A DNA stretch of 64,000 nucleotides from Candidatus Nanoarchaeia archaeon (GTDB lineage Archaea; Nanobdellota; Nanobdellia; CSSed11-243R1): contig JAQTNH010000001.1 in NCBI GenBank assembly GCA_028713895.1, forward strand, positions 886,610 to 950,609. The letters run 5' to 3'. Below the pieces are notes generated by a model. It was not told the origin of the DNA. It made no database searches and saw only the letters and a list, made by a program, of their open reading frames with translations. This document shows, piece by piece, positions 4,732 to 62,357 of the stretch (positions are counted from its first letter, which is position 1; each line of letters starts with the position of its first letter). The translations under genes and the position numbers were made by a program.

Positions 4732-4741
4732 AAAATCACCT

Positions 4742-5651: not shown

Positions 5652-5709
5652 GTTAGAAACTTTTATAAACAAAAGGAACCAAGAGATAAAAGATATGTCT
5701 CATTGAGGT

Positions 5710-6539: not shown

Positions 6540-6595
6540 GTTTCTACCTCCATTTTTATACTATATTAGTGAAAATTAAGATATATTAAGTTTTC

Positions 6596-29156: not shown

Positions 29157-29410
29157 GGTTTCATCTATTATATACAGATTTATTTAACTTTGCAAAAATA
29201 AAAATAAAAAAACTAGAAATTAAAAAAGAAAAAATTACTTGGTGCGAGGCACCAAATCTATGCAGAGGGCAAGTAACATGGCATTGGTTGTCATTTCAGA
29301 GTGACAATAAGATAACCTATCCATTAGCAGAAAAATCTGTACAGAATGTGTTTCGAGAAGCACGGGGTATCAATCCATCTATAATAGCATATACGGACTA
29401 AGGTGATTAT

Positions 29411-30625: not shown

Positions 30626-30756
30626 ATTCTTGGGTTCTGATATTCTTTTTTTCTTTATTCCTTTATTCTCTTCTCCTTCCTTTATTTGATCCTTTATCTA
30701 ATGGAGAATTGATTATGCGTCGGGGTCGTCCTTTTCGACACCAGTTTAATCAACTA

Positions 30757-30776
30757 GGGCAGCCCGCAGGCTGCCC
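30757..30776. terminator. GC-rich 8-bp hairpin GGGCAGCC-CGCA-GGCTGCCC followed by ATTTATT
   Basis: Read directly; about 130 nt downstream of the integrase stop. Confidence 0.3.
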
Positions 30777-31022
30777 ATTTATTAAAATTCTTATTAATAT
30801 TCGTCTTATCTACTATCCTTTTATTAAGATTCCTTTTAGAATCGTATTACTGCTTCTTTTGTCCCTTTATTCCTTTCTTTTGCCTGCTCTTGCTTTCGAA
30901 TAAGATTTTATTTTTTATATGATAATGCCTTTACTTTGGTGCGTGCCCTTATCCCGGATTCTTTAGTATCCTATTGCATTGCTCCCTTCTTTTTTCATTG
31001 TAATTATCATATTCCTATTTTA

Positions 31023-31220
31023 CCTTGTGTAATCCACTTTGTCCTCTGCTGCTATGTGTTCCTTGAAATCCTCTTTAACCGCCTTGTATCCCCCTTTGAT
31101 TCTGGTTATTTTGTATTTCTGCTCGTTTTGGAACTTCCCTGCCTGCGCTACAGAGTTTATCAGCGCCCTCTCTATAGTTTCGCCTCTATCTCTATATCCG
31201 TGTTTTGCTCTTTTTTGTAT
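31023..31220 (-). pseudogene. start-less 66-codon open frame, possible gene remnant
   Basis: My translation: IQKRAKHGYRDRGETIERALINSVAQAGKFQNEQKYKITRIKGGYKAVKEDFKEHIAAEDKVDYTR; protein-like composition but no usable ATG/GTG/TTG start. Confidence 0.25.
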
Positions 31221-31448
31221 TTATAACACCCCTTGGTGTTTATTCTTCCTGCTATTATTCGCGTCTGATATTCTATTTTTTTTATCACCTTTTTATGACT
31301 TGGAACAAGTCTTTATTCACGTTCGTGGTTCCCCTTGGGGTTAGGGGGCATCTGCCTTCATATGACTGGACTCGTTGTCCTGTCCAAGCATTCTCGCAGA
31401 CTATACGCTTTCTCGGTGGACGTTATATTTTCTATATGTTCTCCCCAC

Positions 31449-31478
31449 CGAATAGCCTATGTCAAGGGGATGCCTAAA
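31449..31478 (+). repeat. left copy of a ~30-nt direct repeat
   Basis: CGAATAGCCTATGTCAAGGGGATGCCTAAA; 27 of 31 aligned columns match 42603..42633. Confidence 0.7.
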
Positions 31479-32418
31479 CGTCCTGCGCTCCACCCTGTTG
31501 GTTTGTCTGTTTGTATGTCTTACCTATATTTGATAAAACCGTGTCTCGTTGTTTCCAGCCTAATTTGTCCAAGTTTTCTGCGACGTCTACTATTGGTATC
31601 GTGTTATCTTTTACAAAGTCTCTAAGTAATTTGGACATATTTATCAAGACATCCTCAAATATTATGTTGAACTTTTCATTGCCTAATATCTGCTCTAACT
31701 TCTCATATTCGTTTGCACCCTCATAATACCCCATCGCTCTTGTAAAAATTGAATTAAACTCCCCAAGTGCAATATAAAATTTTTTAGAACCGTTAGTAAA
31801 ATCCATTTCTTCACAATTTTGGCATTCTTGAATTAATTTGTCCATTTCTTTAGAAATATTAAACCGACCTACCATTGACTCGTTTTTAATCTGTCTGTGT
31901 ATACTCTCCTCAATTCGGCATGCATCGTATTCTGAAACCAAATCATTTAAATTGTCTATTTTTTCCATCTGTATGTCTGTTAAATTCATTGGGGTGTTAT
32001 TATCAAAATAGACATTCCAATAAACGTGTATTACTTCGTGACAAAACGAGGCAATCATATCATTTTGATTAATATTACTGTTTACAGGGATTGTTTTCTG
32101 ATTCGTGGTGAAACAATCTTTTAAAAAAATCCCTGCGATCGGATACAGGACAATGGCGTATTTAGTATTATCATTTCTTGATCTGAACGTTTTTCCGCAT
32201 GTTTTTAGATATGTGAATTCGTTTTCCCATAGCCATCTTTGATATTCATCCTCAACCATTCGTGTTGAAAGTGCTGTTTTAACATCAGTTGTGAAAACAA
32301 CTTCTGCAAGCCTATCGTGATACTCTGTCAGAATTTTGTCTACGAATGTATTGAGGGATTTCTCAAAGTCCTTAATATTGTTGATATGAACTCCTTTTTC
32401 GTAAGTATAGACGACCAT
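31474..32418 (-). CDS. HExxH-motif protein (putative metallopeptidase)
   Basis: Single HEVIH motif (SFCHEVIHVYW); otherwise unrecognised. Confidence 0.45.
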   Translation of the reverse strand: MVVYTYEKGVHINNIKDFEKSLNTFVDKILTEYHDRLAEVVFTTDVKTALSTRMVEDEYQRWLWENEFTYLKTCGKTFRSRNDNTKYAIVLYPIAGIFLKDCFTTNQKTIPVNSNINQNDMIASFCHEVIHVYWNVYFDNNTPMNLTDIQMEKIDNLNDLVSEYDACRIEESIHRQIKNESMVGRFNISKEMDKLIQECQNCEEMDFTNGSKKFYIALGEFNSIFTRAMGYYEGANEYEKLEQILGNEKFNIIFEDVLINMSKLLRDFVKDNTIPIVDVAENLDKLGWKQRDTVLSNIGKTYKQTNQQGGAQDV

Positions 32419-32464
32419 ATTACACTCCGTTTTTCAAATCGGTTTTTTTATATACGGTTTGAGT

Positions 32465-32953
32465 TCAATAGTCGATGGTTCCCGCCCAGATTACTTTGGT
32501 TCCCATCCATCCCAATGGATCTTTGATGAATTTTACATTCGCGTAGGTTATACCATCTTTAACTGGCTTAAACGGCCAATCCATTGGACGTGTGTCATCG
32601 GATTTTTTAATATATTTTAAATAATGATCATTGAGGTCTAAAATAAATTTATCAAGATACCTAGAGACCATTTTATCTTTTAGTTCCTGCTTGTAATACC
32701 AATCATTAATTCTGATTTCCACTCTCCGATCCATTTTCAATAAATTCACTCTTTCAATAATCTCCCTTTCAAGTGGTTCCAAATCTATAGATGGAGTTCC
32801 ATCTTCAAGATATACCTCAAGTCTGACTAATGTCCCATCTTTACCTGTATCAATGCCTGCAGACATCACATCTCGAAGAGACAATTGAGCAACAACAGTG
32901 CTATCGTTTATCTTCAATAAGTGACCACGTTTTATTAGAACCGGCTTATTCAT
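32465..32953 (-). CDS. hypothetical protein
   Basis: 162-aa ORF. Confidence 0.5.
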   Translation of the reverse strand: MNKPVLIKRGHLLKINDSTVVAQLSLRDVMSAGIDTGKDGTLVRLEVYLEDGTPSIDLEPLEREIIERVNLLKMDRRVEIRINDWYYKQELKDKMVSRYLDKFILDLNDHYLKYIKKSDDTRPMDWPFKPVKDGITYANVKFIKDPLGWMGTKVIWAGTIDY

Positions 32954-33089
32954 TTAGAACACCAATTTATACTATATAGAAGTATAAGTATTTATAACTT
33001 TTTCCAAATTATAGTATTAAGTTGTTATTGGCATAATTAGAAATGGGATGGGATATTTGCTAAGAATATATGGGCCGTTATGCATTCTT

Positions 33090-34535
33090 TCAAGAATCTG
33101 TTTTCGGCTGCTGGTCCTTTTTGTCTTGAACTATCTTTTCACAAGATTCCGGGCATTCTCCACAGAATTTCGGTCTAGCCCAATCCAAACATGGATCAAG
33201 GTCTTTGATATTGTTAGTTTCAGAGGCCGTTTTTAACTTATCAATTGCACTCTTTATTAACCGCTTTCCTGCTTTAAGATTTTCAGAATCGATTTTTAGA
33301 ATATTAACGGATATTGCCTCCCCTGCGTTTGGATATAACGTTACCAATGCCCCAGTCTCGGAGTTGGTTGCAATGCATGTACAAAGCATCTGTGCTTTAT
33401 ACGCAGAATTAATATATCGTGGCACATCTTTTTTATTACTAACTCTTAACATGACGGGCACAATTTTTCGGGGATTCTCAGATCGGGAATCAAGTATTGC
33501 AGCCCACTGCCACGTTTTAAACATTGGTAAATCGAACTTCATATTTTTAATTTGGTCAATGTCTGATGTCGTTAGGGCAAGTTGATCTGACCTACCTATG
33601 GATTTTTGCATAGCGTCAAGATATGCCAGTTCTGTTGGATCCCGAGAATATTCATCCGCGATTCCATGATTTTTATCCAATATCCAGGCACGGGGCTTGA
33701 ATAAATCAAATGGTCTGAATAGAATATTGTCCGTTGTTTTATTTTTCTCCCGAAGAGTGTTCAATTCCGCTTCTTTATCCGTATCTCTTACAAGGTTAAT
33801 GGAGCTTCTGAGTACTGCTGTTGAAATGTCCTCCACAGCTCCGCAACTGCAAACTCCAGCGTCTTTAAAATCGCACCCAGGTGTAAAATATCTGCATTTT
33901 CCCAATTTGTCTGGATTGGACGTCTTTATGGCTTCATCCAAAGCCCTCTTGCGCTGTTTCAATAAATTTGTTATTTTACCAAAATCTGTTATTTCTATTT
34001 TAAAAACGGTAATCGGGAATGGGGCTTTCGTTTCCTGAAATATTAGATAGTGTATGTTATGTTTGAAAGGATGCATAACTGCGTAGAAGCATATCTGCTC
34101 GAGGTCCTGGGGGTATTTTGTAAATACTGTCTCTGGATCCATGACTCTTTCGTCTTTTGTTTTAAATTCGATTATGGAATTACCGAATCGTATATCGTAT
34201 TTTGCAATCACACCGGGTATTCCAGTATATATTCCGTCTAATGTGGTCTCTTCATCAACATAATCCGGGTGTTTTCTCAACCAAAAATAGGCGATATTCT
34301 GGAGTTTGTTGCCAAGGGATAATTTGTTTGCTATTTTTTGACTGCGCTTAATCTCTTTCCTCTTTCGCGTCCAGTAAGCCTGTGCAGGATTCACTATGTC
34401 TGTAAGATAATAATAATCCGATGGTCTTTGATCGACTAAGTATCGCTTTCTGTATGCTGCGGATAGAATGCCTGATACGGTCCCATCTGAGGAGACGCTA
34501 GCTTTTAATGAAATGATATCTTCGTACAATCCCAT
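33090..34535 (-). CDS. Cas4/RecB-like PD-(D/E)xK nuclease with cysteine clusters
   Basis: YDIRFGNSIIEFKTK (D..ExK), LEQICFYAV (QxxxY), CRYFTPGCDFKDAGVCSC and C-terminal CLDW..CGECPESC. Confidence 0.55.
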   Translation of the reverse strand: MGLYEDIISLKASVSSDGTVSGILSAAYRKRYLVDQRPSDYYYLTDIVNPAQAYWTRKRKEIKRSQKIANKLSLGNKLQNIAYFWLRKHPDYVDEETTLDGIYTGIPGVIAKYDIRFGNSIIEFKTKDERVMDPETVFTKYPQDLEQICFYAVMHPFKHNIHYLIFQETKAPFPITVFKIEITDFGKITNLLKQRKRALDEAIKTSNPDKLGKCRYFTPGCDFKDAGVCSCGAVEDISTAVLRSSINLVRDTDKEAELNTLREKNKTTDNILFRPFDLFKPRAWILDKNHGIADEYSRDPTELAYLDAMQKSIGRSDQLALTTSDIDQIKNMKFDLPMFKTWQWAAILDSRSENPRKIVPVMLRVSNKKDVPRYINSAYKAQMLCTCIATNSETGALVTLYPNAGEAISVNILKIDSENLKAGKRLIKSAIDKLKTASETNNIKDLDPCLDWARPKFCGECPESCEKIVQDKKDQQPKTDS

Positions 34536-34645
34536 GTTTTCACCACTTTATCGTATCAATGAAACCCATTGTGTCGGATATATAAGGATATGTAAACTCT
34601 TTCTGAATAACACGTTTTTATGGTGTTGCCGAACATCGAATATTT

Positions 34646-34795
34646 TTATTTCTTCCCCCGTGAACTCTTGTAGGCAGGATTGTTCGGGTTCCCCTGATTC
34701 GATTTGTTGTCCATCGTAGCCTTGTTCTCTGTGCTCGGCGGATTGTGCACATCAGACTTTTGATCGTTGCTGTTTCGTTTTTTCTCTTCGGGCAT
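34646..34795 (-). CDS. 49-aa hydrophilic low-complexity miniprotein (below the track cut-off)
   Basis: My translation: MPEEKKRNSNDQKSDVHNPPSTENKATMDNKSNQGNPNNPAYKSSRGKK. Confidence 0.25.
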   Translation of the reverse strand: MPEEKKRNSNDQKSDVHNPPSTENKATMDNKSNQGNPNNPAYKSSRGKK

Positions 34796-34889
34796 TTGAT
34801 TCACCTTTTCTATAATTTGTAAGTAGTGTGATAGAAGAGAGCGTTCTCTTCAGTATATATTAATTATGGTTACACCGTTTGTAAAGACT

Positions 34890-34918
34890 GATTTATTTAC
34901 TATATTGAAGATAAATCG
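34890..34918 (-). promoter_or_regulatory. degenerate fourth copy of the island motif
   Basis: GATTTATTTACTATATTGAAGATAAATCG versus GATTTATCTTCCATATTGAAGAAAAATC. Confidence 0.35.
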
Positions 34919-34927
34919 TAAACCTAT

Positions 34928-36175
34928 TTATTTTAACTCTTTTAAGATTTTTTTGTCATAACCCACTAGCTTGAACCAGTCTAATTGTTTGGTGTATACA
35001 TCATCTTTTTGTAAGAGCCATTCTGAAAATTCTGAATAATTCTTGAATTGTTTATCATGTATTACTTTGATTAATTCTAAAAAGAATTGAGTACCCCAAT
35101 AAATAATACTATCACTTTCGTTTTTTATTAGGACCAAATCGGTTTCTGGCCAGTCGTATTCATCACATTCGTGAGTGAATCTGTTTCTAACATCATACAA
35201 ATCATGGAATTTTGATGGCTCTGGGAATCCCCTTGAAATTCTTGAAAAGAAAAGGCATAGCCTGAACATAATCTTATATTTTTTAGGAGATTTTTCTTTC
35301 CTGGTCAATACTGCTTCTAATGCCATAAAAGTTTTAATAAGTTTCATCATTACATCAGATTCGTATTTTGCTTCCGCTAATAATTTTAAACCTGCAATTG
35401 TACATTTTACGAGTTCGTTCTCATTATTCAATAATAGTGAGCTCCACTTTTCCATATACGAAATATCGTCTTCTTCAGGGATTGAATTATCCCATCCAAT
35501 ATCATCAATCCTGGACCATTCACACCTATGTGTATTTGGTAAATGGTAGAAGATAATTTCGTCTGGAATGATTTTATTATGTCTTGTGTGCCGGGGTAAT
35601 AATGTTAATAAAGAAATAAATGCAAAACATTTACTTTTACCCCGTTGTAATGCTTTCCAAAATGAATTCGCTTTTACACGGGTGATTAAAACAACACGTC
35701 CGATATATTCTTTATATAGTCCCCACGGAGTATCTGATGCCCATTCGTTATATAACTCTTCATCAAGATGTTTTATTTGAAATTCCCCAATAGTAAGATT
35801 TTTCATTAAATCAAGGTTCTTTAAGGGCATGAGAATTTCTGTTTCTTTATCCTCTTCTGAAATCCCATCAAGCCATTTCGCAATCTCCTCAGTGGTTTTA
35901 GGTAAATCAGAGTACTTATCTTGGTTTGTGATAAAATCAAAAACAAATTCCCAAAGATGGTCTTCCAACTTACTTTTTTCTATATAATTGGTTTTATCAT
36001 AATGCAATAACAAATAAATTATTTCAGAAAATTTATCTGCTGTTTTTCCTAATAGGGTTCCTATTCCTGCCCTATATCGAAGTGATTTATGCACCTTGTT
36101 TTCTTTATCTGAACTTTTCAACAACGTCACGAATTCTTTCATTCGACTGATAATTTCATCTTTAGTTGAGATCAT
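34928..36175 (-). CDS. HEPN-motif protein (putative RNase)
   Basis: LYDVRNRFTHE = Rx4H with RN dipeptide (codons 35188..35171) inside a helical C-terminal domain. Confidence 0.5.
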   Translation of the reverse strand: MISTKDEIISRMKEFVTLLKSSDKENKVHKSLRYRAGIGTLLGKTADKFSEIIYLLLHYDKTNYIEKSKLEDHLWEFVFDFITNQDKYSDLPKTTEEIAKWLDGISEEDKETEILMPLKNLDLMKNLTIGEFQIKHLDEELYNEWASDTPWGLYKEYIGRVVLITRVKANSFWKALQRGKSKCFAFISLLTLLPRHTRHNKIIPDEIIFYHLPNTHRCEWSRIDDIGWDNSIPEEDDISYMEKWSSLLLNNENELVKCTIAGLKLLAEAKYESDVMMKLIKTFMALEAVLTRKEKSPKKYKIMFRLCLFFSRISRGFPEPSKFHDLYDVRNRFTHECDEYDWPETDLVLIKNESDSIIYWGTQFFLELIKVIHDKQFKNYSEFSEWLLQKDDVYTKQLDWFKLVGYDKKILKELK

Positions 36176-36207
36176 AAGAGAATGAATGAAAACTGTTCTA
36201 TTAAACT

Positions 36208-36762
36208 TTACGCATGATTATCTCCAGTCCCAGGCTCAAATCCCATCCACTCAAAGAAATGCCCGTGCTTGCACACCCAATGCTTCCATGTGTTCTTCTG
36301 TATCAGCCCTATGTCGCTTGTCCTGCATTTGGGGCAGACAAAGAACGATTTTCCGTATAACTTCTGCTTCTGCCACTGGTCCTGGGAAAGTTCTATGTGT
36401 TGAATAGGGAAATTACCTTTTTTATATTCCTCATACCCGCGCTCCAGGAAGCAGACCGGTGGAAGGCTGCCAAACGGCTGCATTGCCTTGAAAATGTGCC
36501 CTGCACCTGTATACCTTGCCGGGTCTGCCAATGCCACTGTGCCCTCGATAAATATGCCTGTTTTGAACTGCCTAGAACTCGCCTGGTTGGTGGCTAGGCA
36601 TTTTGAGCATTCCACCTTGAAATGCGTTTCAGAAGATTGGAATTCTGCAAACCAGATCAGGTTGTCACATTGCGTGCACCTGCCCCAGTAATTGCCCTGG
36701 AAATAGACTAACTTGTCCTCTGAAAAAGAGCCGAGTATCCTGGATTTTGTATCTGATCTCAT
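36208..36762 (-). CDS. zinc-ribbon protein
   Basis: CTQCD...CSKC and CPKC...CKHGH. Confidence 0.5.
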   Translation of the reverse strand: MRSDTKSRILGSFSEDKLVYFQGNYWGRCTQCDNLIWFAEFQSSETHFKVECSKCLATNQASSRQFKTGIFIEGTVALADPARYTGAGHIFKAMQPFGSLPPVCFLERGYEEYKKGNFPIQHIELSQDQWQKQKLYGKSFFVCPKCRTSDIGLIQKNTWKHWVCKHGHFFEWMGFEPGTGDNHA

Positions 36763-36852
36763 TAATCCACTTAGAACGAAAGGGTAGGAGATTATTTAAT
36801 AATTGTTGTTTAAAACCTCACTCGCGATTTTCGACAAACGTCTGGTTGCCAA

Positions 36853-37629
36853 TCATCTTTGCCCCCGAATTGCTGCCTGAATGTGTTTTGGCAACTCCTG
36901 TTGTAATATTTCATATCCATCAGAGTTGTCTTCGTATTCTATATGTCTTAAAACTTTAATGTCAAATGGAACATCCGCCTCTTTTTGTGTGATAATAATT
37001 ACTTCCTTTCCAAGTGTATGAGCGATTCCCAATTCATAAAATACATTCGGATTTCGCCCAGTAACATCTGCAATTATTATTTTTGCACCATTAATGGACT
37101 TCCAGATATCTTCGATTATTTTTTCTCCATAAAGATCATCAGCTCGTTTACATTCAAGACCGCACTGTTTAACGATTGGACATATGTGTTTTGACCATAT
37201 TCTTTCGGACCAGGGTTCACTAAATGGCATTAAAACAAAGCATAGTTTCTCTTGTAACGTAACATCTTTCGAAGAAAAGACCTTTGGATTGATCTGCATA
37301 GTTTCACTTCCTTCTTCAGTGGTATCTTTACTTACTTCTTTAACTTTATTTTTGATGTTCCATGGGAATGGTTTACCACATTTATGGCAAAAACCGGGAG
37401 CTTTGGTCATTGGTCCAACGCCAATGATACCTGGATAATATATTGAACCTGGGATATCAGCACTACAGTTTAGGCATTTAACAATGGTTTTTTGTCCACA
37501 TTTATCGCAATAATCTTTATTTTTTTCTGGACTTTCTTTGTATTCATCATTAATGACATGTCCATAAAGACATACCTGCATGATATCTTGCCGAGGTTTT
37601 TCATCTTCGTCGTCATCAATCGGAAACAT
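36853..37629 (-). CDS. DUF2321-type zinc ribbon fused to a nucleoside 2-deoxyribosyltransferase-like/TIR-like Rossmannoid domain
   Basis: N-terminal CLYGH..CDKCG..CLNC..CHKCGKPFPW; C-terminal CFVLMPF...IIIADVTGRNPNVFYELGIAHTLGKEVIIIT. Confidence 0.55.
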   Translation of the reverse strand: MFPIDDDEDEKPRQDIMQVCLYGHVINDEYKESPEKNKDYCDKCGQKTIVKCLNCSADIPGSIYYPGIIGVGPMTKAPGFCHKCGKPFPWNIKNKVKEVSKDTTEEGSETMQINPKVFSSKDVTLQEKLCFVLMPFSEPWSERIWSKHICPIVKQCGLECKRADDLYGEKIIEDIWKSINGAKIIIADVTGRNPNVFYELGIAHTLGKEVIIITQKEADVPFDIKVLRHIEYEDNSDGYEILQQELPKHIQAAIRGQR

Positions 37630-37680
37630 GTGTATTCTCCAGAGGATTATTGGGGTATTATTATATTAAGGTTATGAAAG

Positions 37681-37710
37681 TCGATTTATCTTCCATATTG
37701 AATAAAAATC
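37681..37710 (-). promoter_or_regulatory. island motif copy 1
   Basis: TCGATTTATCTTCCATATTGAATAAAAATC; 51 nt upstream of the start at 37629. Confidence 0.6.
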
Positions 37711-37764
37711 CAGTGTATCTTCTGTTTACCGTAATACCACTTACGATGACACATAGAATGCCAT

Positions 37765-37893
37765 TTATACTTCAGATATTTTTTTCAGAAACAAGTATTC
37801 ATCAAAACTTCTTAACTTGAGAATATCCCCAGGCTTAAGTCCCATACTATCCAACATCGCCTTTGAAAGAGTGGTTTCTCCGCGCTTTCCCAT
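37765..37893 (-). CDS. 42-aa AbrB/SpoVT-fold miniprotein (below the track cut-off)
   Basis: My translation: MGKRGETTLSKAMLDSMGLKPGDILKLRSFDEYLFLKKISEV; swapped-hairpin signature ..GLKPGD.L. Confidence 0.45.
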   Translation of the reverse strand: MGKRGETTLSKAMLDSMGLKPGDILKLRSFDEYLFLKKISEV

Positions 37894-37930
37894 TTTTACG
37901 TATTCCGCTTTTATTTCCGTGAGATCATCA

Positions 37931-38206
37931 TTAGACGCAAATTGGTATCTTCTTCTGTATCCTTTGCGGCAGGAACATCAGGCTCATAGAAGAAAGGCTG
38001 GCCCTCAGGGCTCGCTTTAGGTTTAATACCTCGATTCCGACGAGCTCATGGTTCTTGTCATAGTCCAAAACAAGGTCAATATCCCTGGTTTTGTCCTTTT
38101 CTGTGCGTTCTACTTTTTTGTCCGAGAATTTATAGTATAATGCATTTGCCTCTAAATCCCAATCAATGCTTATCTTACCATATGGTTCCATTTTGTTTTT
38201 TTCCAT
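37931..38206 (-). CDS. DUF2283-family protein
   Basis: ISIDWDLEANALYYKF...DYDKNHELVGIEVLN matches the YD.e.DaLyi...G.vvGIEIL pattern. Confidence 0.6.
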   Translation of the reverse strand: MEKNKMEPYGKISIDWDLEANALYYKFSDKKVERTEKDKTRDIDLVLDYDKNHELVGIEVLNLKRALRASLSSMSLMFLPQRIQKKIPICV

Positions 38207-38275
38207 CTTTTACACCCTAAAAATAAACTGTTTTGATAATATAAGTATTTCCTTTAAATACCGCTTATAAAAATA

Positions 38276-39052
38276 TCAATCAAAATCCAGGTTTATGTTT
38301 TTGCCACCCGTCCAGCTAATATTTTTAAAAACGTGATCTATAAAATCGAGCGTGTTTTTATATTTCAAATATTCATTTTTTCCGATAGGGTGTTTGGAAA
38401 ATGTATCTAATATTTGTCGTTTATAATGATTGATATTGTCTTCTGATATGATTATGTCTGTGTTAATAAAGGATATTTGTGGCCAATTCCAAACATACCC
38501 TTTCATTTCATTGTTGTTTTTTAAAGGGATGTTGTATTCTATGACGCAATGTCGTAAGAAATTGTCTTTTAAAAGTAATTCTTTTTTTATGGCATATGAA
38601 GTTTTTGGAGTAAAATGAATACCTATCCATTCTGCAGATTCATACCATTCACCTGCATCATTGATTGCAGGCCCGATTATTCTTGTATTATCTGTATAAT
38701 ATGTTCCGACACTGATTGCGCCTCTAAAAAATCTTGAAGATGAGAATGTTATAGCATAAAACGTCTGAATTCTCAGTAACAATACAAGCAATGCTCCGAT
38801 GGAATTTGATGAGGTAGCCTCAATAATATATGTATCCGAAAATTGGTGTATCTGAATACTAAATTCTTTCTCAAATAGTCTGGAATCTTCGACTCCTTTC
38901 TCAATCGATTTTCGCAGGTGATCTTCAAATAACCTCATATCTTCCATAAATTTTTCTGGATTTTCTCTCTCCATAATACGTTTTGTTCCCAACATATCTA
39001 TTAATAGGATTACTCCATCTTTTTTTTTCGTTTCTGTATTTTCTGGAGGCAT
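38276..39052 (-). CDS. class-III-cyclase/mCpol-like palm-domain protein
   Basis: ILLIDMLGTK (first metal Asp), QFSDTYIIEA (second Asp), FRGAISVGTYY, IIGPAINDAGEW, in the order expected for a nucleotidyl-cyclase palm; C-terminal 130 aa unknown. Confidence 0.45.
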   Translation of the reverse strand: MPPENTETKKKDGVILLIDMLGTKRIMERENPEKFMEDMRLFEDHLRKSIEKGVEDSRLFEKEFSIQIHQFSDTYIIEATSSNSIGALLVLLLRIQTFYAITFSSSRFFRGAISVGTYYTDNTRIIGPAINDAGEWYESAEWIGIHFTPKTSYAIKKELLLKDNFLRHCVIEYNIPLKNNNEMKGYVWNWPQISFINTDIIISEDNINHYKRQILDTFSKHPIGKNEYLKYKNTLDFIDHVFKNISWTGGKNINLDFD

Positions 39053-39095
39053 AGTTGATAATATTGGTATATGTATATAATTATTTGTTATATGT

Positions 39096-39125
39096 TCGAT
39101 TTATCTTCCATATTGAAGAAAAATC
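39096..39125 (-). promoter_or_regulatory. island motif copy 2
   Basis: TCGATTTATCTTCCATATTGAAGAAAAATC; 43 nt upstream of the start at 39052. Confidence 0.6.
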
Positions 39126-39170
39126 AACCATAAAGAAACATACCCCATAGTAAACGGATTTACTTCAAGA

Positions 39171-39422
39171 TTAGAATCTCAGTTTCTTCTGAAAGTTTTT
39201 ATGTAGAAATCTTAGCAGCTCCAGACATTCAGCGTTCATCCTATAGTAAAGCCTGTATTTCCCAACGTATCCTTCCCAAATACCAGGTGCATACCTGAAA
39301 GGATGGCCAAGTGGCCTACCGTGTTCTGCAATGCTTTGGACTTTCTTTTTTAATTGAATCATGATATCTTTGCTTAATGATGATAAATCTTCCATATATT
39401 CAGGAGTCGTGTTTACTATCAT
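39171..39422 (-). CDS. RelE/ParE-family toxin
   Basis: 83 aa; ..GKYRLYYRMN.. core; ATGA overlap with the upstream antitoxin. Confidence 0.65.
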   Translation of the reverse strand: MIVNTTPEYMEDLSSLSKDIMIQLKKKVQSIAEHGRPLGHPFRYAPGIWEGYVGKYRLYYRMNAECLELLRFLHKNFQKKLRF

Positions 39423-39703
39423 TGTTTTGATATCTCCTTGTCCATGTGTTCCATATATTTTTCATATGTGAAAGTTCTTCCTTTTCCGCATTCAAGGGAA
39501 TGAATTGCCTTTTGAATCTCCTTTACAAGCATGATTTCTTCTTCACTCATACTGGTGTCCACTTTCTTGACTATCATCATGTCATTAACTTTCATTACAT
39601 TCAGGATGTTACCCTTCTTATAATTTAAATTAACACGCAATAGTTTTGGAACTACAAATTCACCTTTAGTTCCGAGTTTAACATAATCTTGCATTCCGTC
39701 CAT
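39419..39703 (-). CDS. AbrB/SpoVT-type antitoxin
   Basis: VKLGTKGEFVVPKLLRVNLNYKKGNILNV. Confidence 0.65.
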   Translation of the reverse strand: MDGMQDYVKLGTKGEFVVPKLLRVNLNYKKGNILNVMKVNDMMIVKKVDTSMSEEEIMLVKEIQKAIHSLECGKGRTFTYEKYMEHMDKEISKQ

Positions 39704-39756
39704 TTTTATCCTCCTTTTATTAGGAAGAATTAGAATTGCTGGATTTATATGTGTTT

Positions 39757-39781
39757 CGGAATATTCGAATTTCGAAAATTC
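39757..39781. promoter_or_regulatory. overlapping palindromes (GAATATTC, TTCGAA x2) upstream of the TA operon
   Basis: CGGAATATTCGAATTTCGAAAATTC read directly, 54-78 nt upstream of the antitoxin start. Confidence 0.3.
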
Positions 39782-39829
39782 ATTGTTTTAAAACATATAA
39801 TGACAATATAATATTCATCTTTTTTAGCA

Positions 39830-40273
39830 TTATGTATCAATAATGGCCCTTATTCTATTTCTCAATATTGCAGGTCTATCTGTATGCAGTAGTATTATAA
39901 GGCTCCCATTATGAATTTGTAATTCTCTGTTTGAAATATTAAATCTACTTTCAAATTCGTGTATTCTTGAAAATAATGCATTTCTCTGAAATCTTGAACT
40001 ACGTAGATTTACCATCAACCTCAATATAGAATGACGTCTAATAGCTGGAACCGATTGTTGAATTGCCTCAATTATCTGTAATACATTATCTGTGAGGTGG
40101 TTTCTATTTAATAGATTGTCTATATCCTCTCCTAACCGTTCAGGAATTTGAGTGTTGATTACTATACGTAACAGATCTGCTTGACTATCAATGTTAAAGT
40201 TATTTATTAGATATGCCTGAAAAAGTAATCTACGTATTAATTCTCTGTCGCCATCGGGTATATCAACAAACAT
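39830..40273 (-). CDS. hypothetical helical protein
   Basis: 147-aa ORF. Confidence 0.5.
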   Translation of the reverse strand: MFVDIPDGDRELIRRLLFQAYLINNFNIDSQADLLRIVINTQIPERLGEDIDNLLNRNHLTDNVLQIIEAIQQSVPAIRRHSILRLMVNLRSSRFQRNALFSRIHEFESRFNISNRELQIHNGSLIILLHTDRPAILRNRIRAIIDT

Positions 40274-40293
40274 AGATTTACTTCCTTTTGTGT

Positions 40294-40746
40294 TTATTTA
40301 AAGTTATATTTTTTCTTTATGATAGTGGTTATTGGGGTAAGTAATAATCGAGTTGCTTTTCTAAAAAAATTATTTTCAGAAATAATATTTGCTATACTGG
40401 GGCTAATTCTATAGTATATCTTAATAAATTCTAGTCCTAAGAAATGGGATTTTAATACATCATCTCTCCATAGCCGTAAAATATTGATTTCTTTAGTAAA
40501 CGGGGTACCGTACGCAGCAGTTGCAATAAAACAGCCTTCATTTTGTCTGTTTTGAGGACGACTTGTGGAGGGATGATATGAATAGGGAGTTCTACAATAT
40601 GGACAGGCTAGTAATGCCCCACGATAACATCTTGGGCATACTTGATTAAATTGGTAAAGGGGGCCCTTGCAATATGGACATATCGCCTGTTCTGAGGTAT
40701 TGCCACACGCATTGCATCTATACATATTATCACCGTACCTATACAT
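40294..40746 (-). CDS. double zinc-ribbon protein with CFI-box (CFIATAAYG) domain
   Basis: CNACG..CPYC..CPRC..CPYC then GCFIATAAYGTPFTKEINILRLWRD...YYRISP. Confidence 0.55.
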   Translation of the reverse strand: MYRYGDNMYRCNACGNTSEQAICPYCKGPLYQFNQVCPRCYRGALLACPYCRTPYSYHPSTSRPQNRQNEGCFIATAAYGTPFTKEINILRLWRDDVLKSHFLGLEFIKIYYRISPSIANIISENNFFRKATRLLLTPITTIIKKKYNFK

Positions 40747-41305
40747 TTTCTATTAGATTAATTGATGCTTTTGCCATTTGACGAAGACTTATCAAAATCA
40801 AACATACTTCACTTGCAATTACAAAGAATCCAACATAGTAATATTCATCTAAAAGGTTACTAAAAGGCAGTGCTATTAATGATATTAAAAAGATTAAAAC
40901 AATAAAAATTAAGGGCTTTTTAATTGTTTCCTGTATTTTTTTCATTTGTAAATCGAATTGACTAAAATAATATGGTGCGGGATGAGTTGTTATCATTTTG
41001 CTTTGGTATGGTTGAACTTTGAAAGTAATTAACATTATTATTATAGCAAGGATTGTTCCATATGTTTCAACTATTGTACTATGAAACCAAAAAGAGATAT
41101 CATTAAAACTTTCGTTAGGTAAAAAAAATGAAAGTATTGCAAACCCTATTGAGAAAATTAAGGATACCCCGGTAATTAGAACCAATTGCCAACTCTTAAA
41201 ATCATATGTTAAAATCGACGCCAACATCGTTTTATTAACTTTTTTTATTTTCTCCCCCTGTGTCTTTTTTAAAGACGTGTTATATAAATGGGTTCGTTGT
41301 GTCAT
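40739..41305 (-). CDS. 4-TM membrane protein
   Basis: Four hydrophobic helices; 8-nt overlap with the downstream gene. Confidence 0.6.
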   Translation of the reverse strand: MTQRTHLYNTSLKKTQGEKIKKVNKTMLASILTYDFKSWQLVLITGVSLIFSIGFAILSFFLPNESFNDISFWFHSTIVETYGTILAIIIMLITFKVQPYQSKMITTHPAPYYFSQFDLQMKKIQETIKKPLIFIVLIFLISLIALPFSNLLDEYYYVGFFVIASEVCLILISLRQMAKASINLIENV

Positions 41306-41397
41306 TTATACGTAATATTATTGAGAGGTAGATATATTTTTGGATATGTACGGATTCTTTGTTTTACTACCTCATTGTGTTTTACATCACTTTTTAA

Positions 41398-41422
41398 TTA
41401 TCTTCCATATTGAAGAAAAATC
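41398..41422 (-). promoter_or_regulatory. island motif copy 3
   Basis: TTATCTTCCATATTGAAGAAAAATC, 25/25 identical to copy 2; 92 nt upstream of the start at 41305. Confidence 0.6.
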
Positions 41423-41609
41423 AGGTAGGCACCCCCATCCCTGCCATCGCCTCCAGCTCCTGAAGTTCCTTTTCATATGCCCCCTGGTCCAGTTTAACGT
41501 CCTCAACAGCGCTATAATAGCCTTCAATGGTTTCCTCGCAGTTCTGAATCCGTTCATGGAGCTCCTTAATCCTTTTCTCAATAAACTCCTTTGCAGCCAT
41601 CCTAATCAC
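41421..41609 (-). CDS. small coiled-coil protein
   Basis: 62-aa ORF, E/K-rich. Confidence 0.4.
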   Translation of the reverse strand: MIRMAAKEFIEKRIKELHERIQNCEETIEGYYSAVEDVKLDQGAYEKELQELEAMAGMGVPT

Positions 41610-41805
41610 CCCCTATTTTCCCGTATGTTCTGCCCCGTTCCTTCAAAAGCACGAGCTTTTTTCCAATGATTTCCCTATCAAGCACCCTTTCAAAGAGCTC
41701 GCGGGTTCGCTTTGCACCCAATGAGATATACCGCTTTTTTGTGTGCAGGCAGATTATCGGAGTGCCCCAGCAAGTGTGGATGTGGTAATTTACTATCTTT
41801 GCCAT
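41602..41805 (-). CDS. hypothetical small protein
   Basis: 67-aa ORF overlapping its neighbours by a few nt. Confidence 0.4.
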   Translation of the reverse strand: MAKIVNYHIHTCWGTPIICLHTKKRYISLGAKRTRELFERVLDREIIGKKLVLLKERGRTYGKIGGD

Positions 41806-41809
41806 GCTT

Positions 41810-42076
41810 TCACCCCCTCCTTCCTGATATCGGAAGGTTTCTCTGGGGTATCTCCCAAATCTGCCCTTTCTTGATCAAAGCGTCAAGCTCTGCCTCTGCG
41901 AATTCGCCCCATTCATTCTCCAAACCCTGCACAAATCCGAACCAGACAGGCTTTCCTTCGAGTTCTCCTACCTCTTCAACAGCGAACCAATACCAGCCTG
42001 TGAAGCTTTCCCAGGCTTTCAACACCTTTTTGCTGTCTATGTAGAGCTCCCTGTCCCTTGATTCAAAGGTTGCCAT
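41810..42076 (-). CDS. DUF2958-like protein
   Basis: FTGWYWFAVEE...KPVWFGFVQGLENEWGEFAEAELDAL resembles the DUF2958 pattern; start reset to the ATG at 42076. Confidence 0.4.
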   Translation of the reverse strand: MATFESRDRELYIDSKKVLKAWESFTGWYWFAVEEVGELEGKPVWFGFVQGLENEWGEFAEAELDALIKKGQIWEIPQRNLPISGRRG

Positions 42077-42413
42077 TTGAACCGCCCCGGATGTATTTCT
42101 CAAACACCTGCGCCCTGGTGATGAACCCCTCTGCTGAAATGGTTTGGTTTGATGTGCTTGCAACTGCTGATTTCAATGCAGACATCCTTATTGAGACGTC
42201 CTCGCTTAAAGCGTTGTTTTGCTTTTTACTCTGATTTGGCTTTATGAGGCTTATTTTAATAAGCTCCTTTGCCTGGTGCTCGAACTCAATTTCTGCGGCT
42301 TTTCCATAAGTTTTTACTGATTCTATTATGTCTTCATTGGCATTATACCAGGTTTCACCTATCTTTACCCCATTGTTTGCCTCGCTCCAGGCTTCTAATT
42401 TTCCTTTTTCCAT
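42063..42413 (-). CDS. hypothetical protein
   Basis: 116-aa ORF. Confidence 0.45.
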   Translation of the reverse strand: MEKGKLEAWSEANNGVKIGETWYNANEDIIESVKTYGKAAEIEFEHQAKELIKISLIKPNQSKKQNNALSEDVSIRMSALKSAVASTSNQTISAEGFITRAQVFEKYIRGGSNGNL

Positions 42414-42602
42414 CTTAAAACACCTCTCTTTTTGAACTGGACTTTGATGCTTTGCCAGCCCCCTGAAGATTTTTTGGTTCTTCCCTTTAGGGGAGTTAGA
42501 GGGGCTTTTTGATAGAAGACAGACTTGATGTCTGGCTTAGTGCAGGCCTCGCAGACAATACGCTTTTCTGCTGGAAAAAGGTAGAATTAACGATAATATC
42601 AG

Positions 42603-42633
42603 CGAAAAGCCTATGTCAAGAGGGGGGCCTAAA
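42603..42633 (+). repeat. right copy of the ~30-nt direct repeat
   Basis: CGAAAAGCCTATGTCAAGAGGGGGGCCTAAA. Confidence 0.7.
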
Positions 42634-42764
42634 ATAATATAAAGTAAATAAATAATCTTTAAGCCTTACGAACCATTATCTCCTTATAATTAGAATTTCT
42701 TATAATTTTTAGATTTCTGTATATAAACGATAATTATAAAAAATGCCATATTGTCTAATCTAAA

Positions 42765-43787: not shown

Positions 43788-45116
43788 TTGACGGAATTAA
43801 AATATTTAAATAGTAGTTATTGTATTCTTCCCCTAATGATACATTCAAATAACTTAAAATTATTTAAAGGTGTAAATAAAATCAAGATAGATAATTATCT
43901 TAAAATAATCTATCAACAAATCAACAGATATTCAAATGAGATACATGGACGAAAAAAAATCGCTATTTTTTCACCTTCAAAATATGGTCTTGGACATTTT
44001 CATCAAAGTGATATATTAAATAGAAGAATAAATGAAAAGTTATCCAATTATTGTTTATCTTTACATCTTACAGATTTAACACCGTCTAAAAAAGTTCCTG
44101 AGAATACAATAAAAATACCCAATTATAGCGATATTCTTTGGTCGAATATTGTGAATCTTGAAGAAAAAAAAGTAAGGTTAAATAAGGAACAATTATCTTT
44201 TATTCGCAAAGATATTCTTAAAAAATTTATAGATTTATTTTCTCCAGATATTATACTCTTTGATTATTATCCATTCATTCACTCGAATGAAATTTTTTCA
44301 GAGTTTTATAAAACAATCGCATATTGGAAAAAAGAAAATTCTCATGGGAGATTAATCTGTCTTTATAGAGGAATTTTAGGGTATAATTCTGAACGGATGG
44401 AACCTGGTTATAGAGAACGAGTAATAAAAACAATGAAAAAACAAATTGATTTTGTTTTTATTTTAGCCGATCCTGATGAGCGATTCTTTATAAGAGAAGA
44501 ATTGTGGTTCCTGAATAAAGAATTTTATAAATTTAAATATTTAGGATATATAACAGATATTAAACAATGTGATCCTCCAAATAAAAAACAAATTATATGT
44601 CAAGTTGGGGGAGGAATAGATGGAGACAAATTAATTGAAATCTTTTGCAAATGCATGAAAATAATTGAACAAATTGATGATTCTGTGATAGGTATTGTTA
44701 TCCTTGGTCCAACCTTTCCTGAAAAAAGGAAAAAACAAATTCTTGAAGATTACAAAAATGTAAAAACGTTAATATTTAAACCTGGTGTCGATGAATTGTA
44801 TCCAGTATTAAAAAAATCAGATCTCATAATATCAATGGGTGGCTATAATAGTGTGGTTGAAGCTGCAAATCTTGAAATACCCTCGATTATCGTTCCAAGA
44901 GAAAAAGAAATCAAACATGAACAATATCTTAATGCAATGAGATTCTATCAATATGGGTTAATTGATGAAATCATTGAAATGGAGCGATTGGAAGTCAAGA
45001 ATCTATTACCTTCAATTTTTAGATATATCTATAAGAAAGAAGTAAAACCAATAAAAATGTGCGGTTTAGATAGTATTATTGATGAAATCTGTACTATTTG
45101 GAATATAGTATTGTGA
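43788..45116 (+). CDS. glycosyltransferase (GT28/MurG-like C-terminal domain)
   Basis: QVGGGIDGDKL ... ISMGGYNSVVEAANLEIPSIIVP; TTG start uncertain. Confidence 0.55.
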   Translation: MTELKYLNSSYCILPLMIHSNNLKLFKGVNKIKIDNYLKIIYQQINRYSNEIHGRKKIAIFSPSKYGLGHFHQSDILNRRINEKLSNYCLSLHLTDLTPSKKVPENTIKIPNYSDILWSNIVNLEEKKVRLNKEQLSFIRKDILKKFIDLFSPDIILFDYYPFIHSNEIFSEFYKTIAYWKKENSHGRLICLYRGILGYNSERMEPGYRERVIKTMKKQIDFVFILADPDERFFIREELWFLNKEFYKFKYLGYITDIKQCDPPNKKQIICQVGGGIDGDKLIEIFCKCMKIIEQIDDSVIGIVILGPTFPEKRKKQILEDYKNVKTLIFKPGVDELYPVLKKSDLIISMGGYNSVVEAANLEIPSIIVPREKEIKHEQYLNAMRFYQYGLIDEIIEMERLEVKNLLPSIFRYIYKKEVKPIKMCGLDSIIDEICTIWNIVL

Positions 45117-46521
45117 TGTTATTATTTTCATTTTTTGTCACTTTTATTATTTTATTTAAAACAATCATTCTATTATCATTTATTTGATTCATTTGTAATT
45201 TTTGATTGTTGTTTGTTATTATAAAAATATTCTTAATATTATTATTAACCGGAGTAACATTCTTTTTCTTTCGTTGATCTATTATTAATTTTATTATACA
45301 ACTAGTAAGTGTAATTAGGGCTGGCAATATTGGAAGAACAATATCTTTAAAAATTAGTTCTATAGAACCAGTGTTTAAAATTATTTCAAACATTGTCTCA
45401 TCGTCCATTTTTTCTTCAAATTTATAATTAAAAAATGGAGTTATTAAATAAAAAATTTCAGAAAAAGTTGGTTTTTCATCCAAAGTAAATGAAATAGTTG
45501 GTTTATTATTTGGGATATAATTCGTTAAAGCACATTTTTTAAGATCAATAGATATATTGAATAATTGAAAATATTCAAGGACTTCAAGAAATTGCTTTTC
45601 ATTGGATAGTAAATAATTAACATCGGAGAATTCTTTTTTTATTTGTACTAATTGATATATAGTCTCTATAGAAAACTCAGGAAAATATTTATTAAATGAT
45701 ATAGAATATATTTTTATACCATTATAGAAATCATTAATTAAATCATTATCAAGGTAATAATCAAAACCTCGAAAAAGAATTTTAAAAGCGGATTGTATTT
45801 CACCAAGAATAAGTACAATGTTTGCTGCAATATTATAATCATTTATTCTTAATGAGTCTTGCAAAAAAATATATAAAAAATCGAATAAAATTGATGTTGG
45901 AATAATATTTTTTTCGTAGATAAATGAATTTTTTTTCAACACCTCAATAGTTGGAGTAATTAAATAAGGAATGTCTGTGACATTAAAAATACAACCTTTT
46001 ATGTGAGTTTCTACGACTAATGAATATTTCATTGTTAAATTCGAGAAATCATCATCTTCTAAAGAACTTCTTGAAAAATTTGACCACCCAGAATTTCCTG
46101 CAAGTATACAATTCTTAATCATTGTGTCAGTAAAATTTGTTTTTCTTAGATTAACCATTCGAATTTCTGTATTAATAATAATAGACCCTTGAAAATTCGC
46201 TTTATGATAATTTCCCCGCAATATTGAACAATTTTTCAATGTACAATCAATGAATCTTGATTCAATATAATCCCCACCTTCGAACGTACAATTGTTGAAA
46301 GTACACTTCTTGAATTCTAATCGCTCACAATCGCCCCCTAAGAAAGATGATCCATTGAATTTACAATTCTTAAAATTCGGATTAGAAAAAAAAGAACCTC
46401 TGAATTTAAATTTCTCATCAAATGATTTGTTTAATATATCCTTATTTTGATACTTTTCTCGTCTTTTCTCAATAGCACTCAGAAATTTTTTATTAGATAT
46501 CTTTTTCTTATTTTTCACCAT
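45094..46521 (-). CDS. pentapeptide-repeat protein with C-terminal TM helix
   Basis: About 130 aa of A(D/N)LxX-type repeats (FKNCKFNGSSFLGGDCERLEFKKCTFNNCTFEGGD...). Confidence 0.7.
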   Translation of the reverse strand: MVKNKKKISNKKFLSAIEKRREKYQNKDILNKSFDEKFKFRGSFFSNPNFKNCKFNGSSFLGGDCERLEFKKCTFNNCTFEGGDYIESRFIDCTLKNCSILRGNYHKANFQGSIIINTEIRMVNLRKTNFTDTMIKNCILAGNSGWSNFSRSSLEDDDFSNLTMKYSLVVETHIKGCIFNVTDIPYLITPTIEVLKKNSFIYEKNIIPTSILFDFLYIFLQDSLRINDYNIAANIVLILGEIQSAFKILFRGFDYYLDNDLINDFYNGIKIYSISFNKYFPEFSIETIYQLVQIKKEFSDVNYLLSNEKQFLEVLEYFQLFNISIDLKKCALTNYIPNNKPTISFTLDEKPTFSEIFYLITPFFNYKFEEKMDDETMFEIILNTGSIELIFKDIVLPILPALITLTSCIIKLIIDQRKKKNVTPVNNNIKNIFIITNNNQKLQMNQINDNRMIVLNKIIKVTKNENNNITILYSK

Positions 46522-46588
46522 ATTATCAGAACCCTAAATAATTTTAAGTTATTTTGAGGTATTCCCCTCTGTTCGATTTTTTTTAAAA

Positions 46589-62274: not shown

Positions 62275-62357
62275 CTATTTTCTTTCAATATAGAAAGAAA
62301 TTCTTTAAATGGTATGCAAAGGCATTCCTTGGGATCAAGAGTATTTCATCAACAAGG

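Follow-up and report, generated by a model that had tools for sequence, protein, structure and literature searches.

Within the 64-kb window analysed here (the whole stretch of 64,000 nt), whose proteins are recorded from a 956-kb contig of a "Candidatus Nanoarchaeia" (DPANN) metagenome-assembled genome (MAG), four co-oriented copies of a 28-bp imperfect palindrome, designated c1 to c4, are found within 6.5 kb. The reading which we favour, and to which we give about an even chance, is that this motif is the shared upstream binding site of one regulator. The palindrome would be a double-stranded site bound by a single dimeric (or tetrameric) protein upstream of the core promoters of four transcription units in a mobile-element-like module of approximately 11 kb. 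This one protein would switch the four units together, namely those headed by a four-transmembrane (4-TM) protein, a cyclase-like protein and a Zn-ribbon/TIR-like protein, and that of a 49-aa open reading frame (ORF) followed by a PD-(D/E)XK nuclease. The mode would be activation, or anti-repression or looping with a weaker CAATAWT element, rather than promoter occlusion. Speaking for a regulatory site are the length of the palindrome, which would suit a dimeric DNA-binding protein, its placement upstream of TATA-like boxes at all four copies, the shared CAATAWT element, the presence of the site at only some of the promoters, and the stability of the arrangement across five assemblies, one of which carries an inversion at other sites.

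The best copy, c3 (39098-39125, minus strand), reads GATTTATCTTC CATATT GAAGAAAAATC on the plus strand and GATTTTTCTTC AATATG GAAGATAAATC on the minus strand, and is composed of an 11-bp arm, a 6-bp asymmetric centre and an 11-bp inverted arm (an 11-6-11 layout). Its self-complementarity is 24/28, that is, 12 of the 14 symmetric pairs. Copy c2 (37683-37710, minus strand) carries one mismatch, in the GATTTTTATTC arm. In c4 (41395-41422, minus strand) the 25-nt core at 41398-41422 is exact and the promoter-proximal arm is degenerate in its outer 3-4 bases (..GAAGATAATTA). The degenerate copy c1 (34890-34917), which reads GATTTATCTTC AATATA GTAAATAAATC on the minus strand, has changes in one arm and in the centre. 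The arms match each other at 10/11 positions in c3, 9/11 in c1 and c2, and 8/11 in c4. A search with the 25-nt core, allowing ≤3 mismatches, gave exactly three matches (37686-37710, 39101-39125 and 41398-41422) and none in 100 shuffles. Repeat finding showed that 37681-37710 and 39096-39125 are identical at 29/30 positions (97% over 30 nt) and added the degenerate copy at 34888-34917, which agrees with the best copy at 24/28 positions over 34890-34917. When the four copies were aligned with 60-nt flanks the likeness stopped at 28 bp, the flanks were unrelated, and neither flanking similarity nor a target duplication was seen at any of them. The coordinates, identities, single orientation and unrelated flanks given in a first-pass annotation of this DNA are therefore borne out; the 12-nt dyad which it described is replaced by one which spans all 28 bp in the 11-6-11 layout.

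Such symmetry is uncommon in the window. Two 28-mers with at least 12/14 symmetric pairs occur (one is c3) against an expectation of 0.3, and 13 sites of 11-6-11 layout have arms matching at ≥9/11 positions, three of them copies of the motif. Single-strand folding of 88-nt windows gave z values of -0.09, 0.18, -2.56 and -0.61 for the four copies, with structure beyond the 28 bp absent; a modest hairpin is confined to c3 (-8.4 kcal/mol, z -2.6), the other three not rising above shuffles. None of the Rfam families, including the CRISPR repeat families, matches the motif, and the window holds no CRISPR-like array which carries it. The combination of a palindrome with weak, unconserved single-strand folding points to a duplex protein-binding site rather than to an RNA, single-stranded DNA or attC-type folded site. 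A further 11-6-11 palindrome at 62276-62303 (TATTTTCTTTC AATATA GAAAGAAATTC, arms 9/11), between convergent genes outside the island, resembles the motif at 20/28 positions; it may be distantly related to the motif or act as a T-rich terminator in both directions.

Each copy lies in an intergenic gap of 115-135 nt in a region where all of the genes are on the minus strand. The gap from the preceding stop codon is 10 nt for c1 (after a 415-aa gene), 54 nt for c2 (after a 42-aa AbrB/MazE-like ORF), 45 nt for c3 (after a ParE-like gene) and -2 nt for c4 (after a 59-aa gene, whose TGA stop codon supplies the first two bases, GA, of c4). In the downstream direction a TATA-like box is reached from the 28-bp site after 26, 13, 16 and 58 nt in c1 to c4, respectively, and the next ATG after 94, 53, 45 and 89 nt. 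These boxes, which were assigned by consensus match only, are all on the minus strand: ATTATATA at 39074-39081 for the cyclase-like gene, starting at -29 from its ATG, the spacing expected for a leaderless transcript; TTAATATA at 37662-37669 for the DUF2321/TIR-like gene (-40); TATATCTA at 41329-41336 for the 4-TM gene (-31); and, for the 49-aa ORF downstream of c1, TTAATATA again at 34856-34863 (-68). The claim that the exact copies precede TATA-like stretches thus held. Measured from the 30-nt or 25-nt repeat the first ATG is 43, 51 and 92 nt away, and the start of the 481-aa gene lies 355 nt from the degenerate copy, in agreement with the 43-92 nt and approximately 350 nt proposed earlier. 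The degenerate copy had been placed upstream of that 481-aa, "Cas4-like" gene; the distance is correct, but a TATA box of its own and the 49-aa ORF, with a Shine-Dalgarno-like AAGGTGA, are nearer, and c1 heads its own transcription unit.

Host genes in the window have a TATA-like 8-mer which starts approximately 32 nt before the ATG, and this spacing implies that mostly leaderless mRNAs would be used in this DPANN genome. The boxes behind the motif copies keep to the ATG spacing usual in this genome. If, following this norm, transcription is taken to begin approximately 32 nt beyond the first base of the TATA 8-mer, the site is centred upstream of the predicted start by some 60 nt in c2 and c3, 72 nt in c1 and 104 nt in c4. 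At none of the copies does the 28-bp site overlap the B recognition element (BRE)/TATA region or the start site. Since the site is upstream of the BRE/TATA and never overlaps it, activation, looping or anti-repression would be likelier than occlusion, and the motif would be an upstream activator-type or remote site, not a classical operator.

The promoters downstream of c2, c3 and c4 share a second element between the TATA box and the ATG, CAATATT at 39060-39066 (minus strand) for c3 and CAATAAT at 37646-37652 and 41317-41323 for c2 and c4, which sits 13-17 nt downstream of the TATA start. This CAATAWT is present in 0/41 other upstream regions (within 40 nt of the ATG); our rough post-hoc estimate, not a computed test, puts p at approximately 0.01-0.03. 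Its presence suggests that the three belong to one promoter class. We also observe that CAATAWT can be likened to the centre of the palindrome (TCAATAT), and it could be a second, weaker site.

The 28-bp site is found at just 4 of approximately 12 promoters in the module. Several genes inside the motif-bounded blocks possess TATA boxes of their own, and the G+C content at third codon positions (GC3) varies gene by gene, for example 0.26, 0.57 and 0.29 inside one block. From the internal TATA boxes and this variation it appears that the blocks are neither single operons nor compositionally uniform cassettes, and the proposal that each copy heads a single operon was not upheld.

There is precedent for such an arrangement. 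Unrelated early and anti-defence genes of archaeal viruses, and of MAG contigs resembling mobile genetic elements, share highly conserved genome-specific regulatory sequences which are thought to be bound by one regulator (Bhoobalan-Chitty et al. 2024, PMC11065993), the proposed regulators being the winged helix-turn-helix protein Aca8 or a leucine-zipper protein acting on inverted repeats. As in that study, unrelated and poorly conserved genes of one archaeal mobile-element genome stand here behind a near-identical, genome-specific upstream sequence. The viral block, in contrast, surrounds or overlaps the BRE/TATA core and its proposed regulator represses, whereas the present motif is a discrete 28-bp palindrome 13-58 nt upstream of a less conserved TATA. 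Further differences are the DPANN host, the apparent nature of the genes, which resemble defence effectors and not small anti-defence genes, and the regulator, which was not found here. A shared palindromic protein-binding site which heads several units is a known kind of feature; the sequence of the present, putative example is unique and its lineage little studied.

The KorA and KorB operators of plasmid RK2 are identical palindromes found at many promoters at variable distances, and archaeal activators such as Ptr2 of Methanocaldococcus jannaschii employ palindromic sites upstream of the BRE/TATA. The motif resembles these sites in being a palindrome upstream of, or at a variable distance from, promoters, by which several operons are, or here would be, placed under one protein. 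The Ptr2 and KorA/KorB sites are 12-20 bp long and their binding proteins are known and encoded nearby, whereas the present motif measures 28 bp and its putative binder was not found.

Several points weigh against a regulatory site. Pfam, NCBIfam, PHROGs and PADLOC identified no cognate regulator, and the nearby DNA-binding-type folds are represented only by weak AbrB/MazE-like antitoxin matches. The near-identity extends over 25-30 bp, includes asymmetric positions and has sharp edges; this exceeds what selection for binding would need and hints at a common origin or at recombination. The spacing to the TATA box varies from 13 to 58 nt, and a 28-bp site with an 11-6-11 layout has the textbook size of a tyrosine-recombinase core site. 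Public collections, moreover, yielded no orthologous island with the site before orthologous genes. In the GTDB representative genomes, among which the source genome is not included, 73 single partial matches were found in unrelated bacteria and the full palindrome in none; IMG/VR gave 8 single partial matches and none to the arms-only pattern; and JGI metagenomes gave two matches, both without the left arm. No related island was found in these three scans, and the search of other genomes and metagenomes recommended by the first-pass annotation thus gave only isolated partial matches in unrelated organisms. The scan of the source contig itself reached only approximately 74 kb of the 956 kb (ca. 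8%), comprising the window and 10 kb of left flank, and no further full site was present in either; a generic genome-wide repeat, raised as a possibility at the outset, thus left no extra full copy in the part scanned. The shared operator first proposed is therefore retained in part: the palindrome, the promoter-bearing gaps, the shared proximal element and the viral precedent (PMC11065993) speak for it, and it is limited by the lack of overlap with the BRE/TATA, of an identified regulator and of an orthologous locus.

The alternative which survives best, a possible though unlikely one in our judgement, is that the motif is a tyrosine-recombinase core site. The four direct copies would then be the junctions of cassettes inserted serially, or excisable as circles, in an integron- or dif-module-like platform. 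The enzyme would be the 404-aa tyrosine integrase with a C-terminal Zn ribbon encoded at 29411-30625 (plus strand), or another acting in trans. All motif copies fall between this integrase and an Xer-like tyrosine recombinase (46589-47545, minus strand), in AT-rich DNA of mosaic composition; the two tyrosine recombinases are found within 5 kb of the outermost copies, and site-specific inversion is active in the island. Besides the 11-6-11 architecture, the asymmetric centre CATATT is kept in c2 to c4, the 25-30-bp identity ends exactly at the arm ends with unrelated flanks beyond, and all copies are direct repeats which lie -2 to 54 nt after the preceding stop, c4 at a sharp break in G+C content (0.465 vs 0.318). 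The degenerate copies c1 and c4 are the outermost ones. The contents, a toxin-antitoxin (TA) pair and TIR-like, cyclase-like and nuclease genes, resemble integron cassettes, including archaeal ones (PMC9668308), and pdif modules (PMC6449649).

Against recombination at the motif stands the constancy of the locus. The island is present also in contigs of three SRA runs (100% identical) and in one NCBI assembly (99.985%), and in all of these the genes beside the motif stand in one and the same order. None of the five assemblies (the window, L001, L002, L003 and L104) shows a hybrid junction at the motif, a deletion, a changed gene order or a different neighbour. Where contigs end close to a copy, 22 nt short of the motif at c3 and 86 nt past it at c2, no alternative sequence is present, and every contig with the cyclase-like or the 59-aa protein shows the same arrangement, no module being found in a different sequence context. 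The GC3 mosaic is finer than the motif-bounded cassettes, every cassette has promoters of its own, and the shared promoter-proximal elements would not be needed. A full site adjoins neither recombinase gene, there being a weak half-site upstream of the integrase only, and arrays with the motif are absent from the loci of homologues of the Xer-like and of the 481-aa proteins. The half-site-like TCCAT-TAGCAGAAAAATC at 29320-29337, 74 nt upstream of the integrase ATG, matches the right arm at 10/11 positions with one gap needed, and is statistically not compelling.

The Xer-like enzyme probably has different cognate repeats. The protein passes the NCBIfam XerA_Arch model (233 bits vs a cut-off of 220), the overall G+C content of its gene matches the host, and its closest relatives, approximately 60% identical, occur in diverse archaea in both housekeeping and defence-island contexts. 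At the loci of four homologues (L087, L088, L090 and L092; 58-59% identity) neither a site like the motif nor a similar array of repeats was present. A perfect 20-bp inverted repeat, AAATAACTTAAAATTATTTA, of dif-like form (TAA-N7-TTA) is located at 43847-43866 and 46535-46554, the sites with the TAA..TTA signature spanning 43842-43870 and 46531-46559, and the second repeat lies 35 nt from the stop codon of the Xer-like gene. An independent assembly, L003 (GCA_028716625.1, contig JAQUPK010000022.1; 1-311/292-7002), contains the junction expected from inversion of the 2.7-kb segment between the repeats. Considering these TAA-N7-TTA repeats and the inversion seen there, the Xer-like enzyme most plausibly serves the AAATAACTTAAAATTATTTA sites. 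Recombination is active in the island, yet no such event was seen at the motif. The invertible segment (43867-46534), which adjoins the Xer-like gene, holds a glycosyltransferase gene (43836-45116, plus strand) and a pentapeptide-repeat gene (45094-46521, minus strand), and together with the 20-bp repeats it has the look of a switch, inverted by a recombinase, which would flip the 5' ends or promoters of these two genes, both surface-related.

A dif site is defined as a 28-bp imperfect palindrome of two 11-bp arms and a 6-bp central region (PMC2958812), and the present locus is Xer/dif-like in having a 28-bp 11-6-11 site and a host-encoded Xer-family recombinase. As with pdif sites, the copies delimit small accessory modules which include toxin-antitoxin pairs. 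Acinetobacter pdif modules, of approximately 0.8-3 kb, are flanked by inversely oriented Xer sites (C/D and D/C) and are found in different contexts (PMC6449649). Such pdif sites resemble the chromosomal dif and alternate in orientation, whereas the copies here are all direct; the same module occurs here in no other context, and the local Xer-like enzyme has other sites. The sequence also departs from dif, the TAA-N6-8-TTA of which (ATAA..TTAT in bacteria) is replaced at the inner arms of the motif by CTTC/GAAG. A dif site is present as a single functional copy per replicon near the terminus, where the host Xer recombines it; in the approximately 74 kb of the contig scanned here, four copies lie within 6.5 kb.

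As in integron arrays and clusters of attC sites lacking integron-integrases (CALINs), including archaeal ones (PMC9668308), co-oriented accessory genes (TA, phage-resistance-like) are parted by a repeated site. Yet attC sites are structured imperfect hairpins of 55-140 nt which recombine as folded single strands, whereas the motif is a simple 28-bp palindrome without an extended fold, a comparison made by folding and not with an attC covariance model. Integron cassettes are mostly promoterless, unlike the present ones, and neither of the two tyrosine recombinases reaches the cut-off of 265 bits of the integron-integrase model TIGR02249 (124.5 and 33.3 bits). The first-pass annotation had itself named a cassette-boundary recombination site as the alternative to an operator. 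The layout, sharp-edged near-identity, direct orientation and two nearby recombinases favour that proposal; the missing rearrangement and the other sites of the Xer-like enzyme do not. Taken to its fullest, this view has the motif as part of a DPANN cassette platform akin to, but simpler than, integrons and pdif modules: a tyrosine recombinase would use the simple 11-6-11 core to collect and rearrange defence cassettes that bring their own promoters, and the site may double as a regulatory docking point. We consider this doubtful. The regulatory and recombination readings are not exclusive, as a conserved regulatory site can serve as a homology "linker" for module exchange.

Other repeats were noted in the window. 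An imperfect hairpin element of approximately 90 nt, present in two direct copies (31385-31479 and 42540-42636), brackets the 11-kb module with all four motif copies; one copy begins 4 nt after the stop of a 314-aa gene. The boxes at the base of its stem, CTTGACATAGGC ... GCGTATWGTCTGCGAG, are conserved, the loop varies, and three pairs show compensatory changes; no Rfam family matches it, and the conserved boxes have no IMG/VR match. The element is attC-like in design, without AAC/GTT boxes. Besides this hairpin pair no att-type direct repeats were found for the 404-aa integrase. The approximately 760 nt between the integrase stop and the hairpin element (30626-31385) contain no convincing ORF and are rich in T/C-tract repeats, for example at 30626-30664 and 31254-31292.

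A protein-bound site which is not connected with promoters is rather improbable. The motif might then serve the partition of an integrated element as a parS-like centromere, act as a roadblock or insulator, or end transcription between co-directional units as an archaeal terminator (with the T5 run in its upstream arm). Near-identical palindromes at kilobase spacing, as observed here, are typical of parS clusters, and a T5 run is found in the coding-strand arm GATTTTTCTTC, at -2 to 54 nt from the upstream stops. The module, however, yielded no ParA- or ParB-like gene, the T5 run is missing from c1, a terminator needs no conserved 28-bp palindrome, and the copies are all intergenic and upstream of promoters.

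It is very improbable that the motif comprises the chromosomal dif site of a host XerA together with pseudo-dif sites left by integrated elements, in an array like those of integrative mobile elements exploiting Xer (IMEX). The 28-bp 11-6-11 layout, the XerA_Arch-passing recombinase with host-like G+C content 5 kb away, and the existence of only one near-perfect copy (c3) agree with this, and in haloarchaea a dif-like site adjoins the xerA operon (PMC11840125). The TAA-N6-8-TTA signature, which is what reported archaeal dif sites conserve most strongly (PMC11840125), is however missing from the motif; the Xer-like gene has flanking TAA-N7-TTA inverted repeats of its own, and it is there that inversion was seen; and the loci of Xer homologues lack a similar site. 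A canonical dif/IMEX site was rejected as the principal explanation because of the missing TAA-N6-8-TTA and the separate sites of the Xer-like gene.

Least credible of all is an RNA-level or repeat-family element (a transcribed hairpin, a solitary CRISPR-like repeat, a miniature inverted-repeat transposable element or an insertion sequence end), for although a palindrome of 28 nt could form a hairpin (in c3 the stem would pair at 10/11 bp), folding is weak and in c1, c2 and c4 not above shuffles, there is no Rfam match, no array in the window, no further copy in the window, flank or public collections and no target duplication; an attC-like or structured-RNA element was rejected since an extended fold and an Rfam match are both missing.

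The genes placed behind the four sites, all on the minus strand, are as follows. Downstream of c4 (39171-41305) are those for the 4-TM protein (40739-41305), a CFI-box protein (40294-40746), a 147-aa protein (39830-40273), an AbrB-like protein (39419-39703) and a ParE-like protein (39171-39422). The CFI-box label was supported (CFI-box-CTERM, E 2e-24); the ParE-like and AbrB-like matches are weak. The module after c3 (37765-39052) comprises the cyclase-like gene (38276-39052), a DUF2283 gene (37931-38206), the label of which is supported, and the 42-aa AbrB/MazE-like ORF (37765-37893). The last of these (MGKRGETTLSKAMLDSMGLKPGDILKLRSFDEYLFLKKISEV), with weak MazE/AbrB similarity, is unannotated and was called in one fetched contig only. 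The cyclase-like protein has no family match, no PDB sequence match and a single distant homologue; in a low-confidence model (predicted local distance difference test, pLDDT, 45) its top fold matches are all class III cyclases (E approximately 1e-4), so that the name is weakly supported.

After c2 (34928-37629) follow a DUF2321 zinc ribbon protein with a TIR/nucleoside deoxyribosyltransferase (NDT)-like domain (36853-37629), a 184-aa Cys-rich protein (36208-36762) and the 415-aa protein (34928-36175). For the first of these the original Zn-ribbon-NDT/TIR label found support in DUF2321 and in a TIR-type effector match (E 2e-12), the nucleoside deoxyribosyltransferase match being weak. The genes after c1 (31474-34795) are the 49-aa ORF (34646-34795), the 481-aa PD-(D/E)XK-like gene (33090-34535) and genes for 162-aa and 314-aa proteins. 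The first genes after c2 to c4 are AT-rich (GC3 0.24-0.28), and the 481-aa gene after c1 has a GC3 of 0.37. Across the island (34928-42413) GC3 alternates between genes, 0.22-0.29 vs 0.51-0.57. The 184-aa gene, the DUF2283 gene and four small genes (41421-42413) have values of 0.45-0.57, close to that of the Xer-like gene, with AT-rich genes interleaved.

The 481-aa protein is a candidate stand-alone defence nuclease. Its homologues, 28-46% identical, are single genes in other defence-type neighbourhoods (AbiJ, AbiGi, MmeI-type restriction-modification, GmrSD), and the motif is absent from their loci. The family has no relatives in IMG/VR or in phage or plasmid collections, and no Pfam, PHROG, PADLOC or PDB match. 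It forms 17 clusters in which D..E.K is invariant and multiple Cys are conserved; "Cas4-like" rests on the conserved D..ExK and Cys columns only. One homologue is located in an unrelated metagenomic defence island, L098 (JGI 3300035701), which carries a different 19-nt motif, AAGYCTTATCTCCTGAYGA, mostly followed by GGAnATGAC, at 138-156, 4674-4692, 5641-5659 and 6577-6595, with weaker copies at 4733 and 6453. All in one orientation, these precede successive genes (a 249-aa protein, AbiGi-like, NucS_C-like), and L098 is a second case of a shared sequence heading neighbouring defence genes.

Elsewhere in the window, a 137-nt stretch at 354-490, which ARAGORN missed, matches a 71-position tRNA model of Rfam; we read it as a probable intron-bearing tRNA, which fits an archaeon. 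The 850-aa protein encoded at 1206-3758 contains intein-splicing and LAGLIDADG domains.

If the recombination site were true, this would be the first simple-site cassette platform described in archaea and would provide a mechanism for building defence islands. Either reading rests on one genome at present. If the motif is a regulatory site, it would give a handle on how a genome-reduced, host-dependent DPANN archaeon co-switches several defence-like systems, and "guilt by regulatory motif" would assign the orphan genes (4-TM/CFI-box, cyclase-like and the 481-aa nuclease) to one response, as with the anti-defence genes of archaeal viruses.

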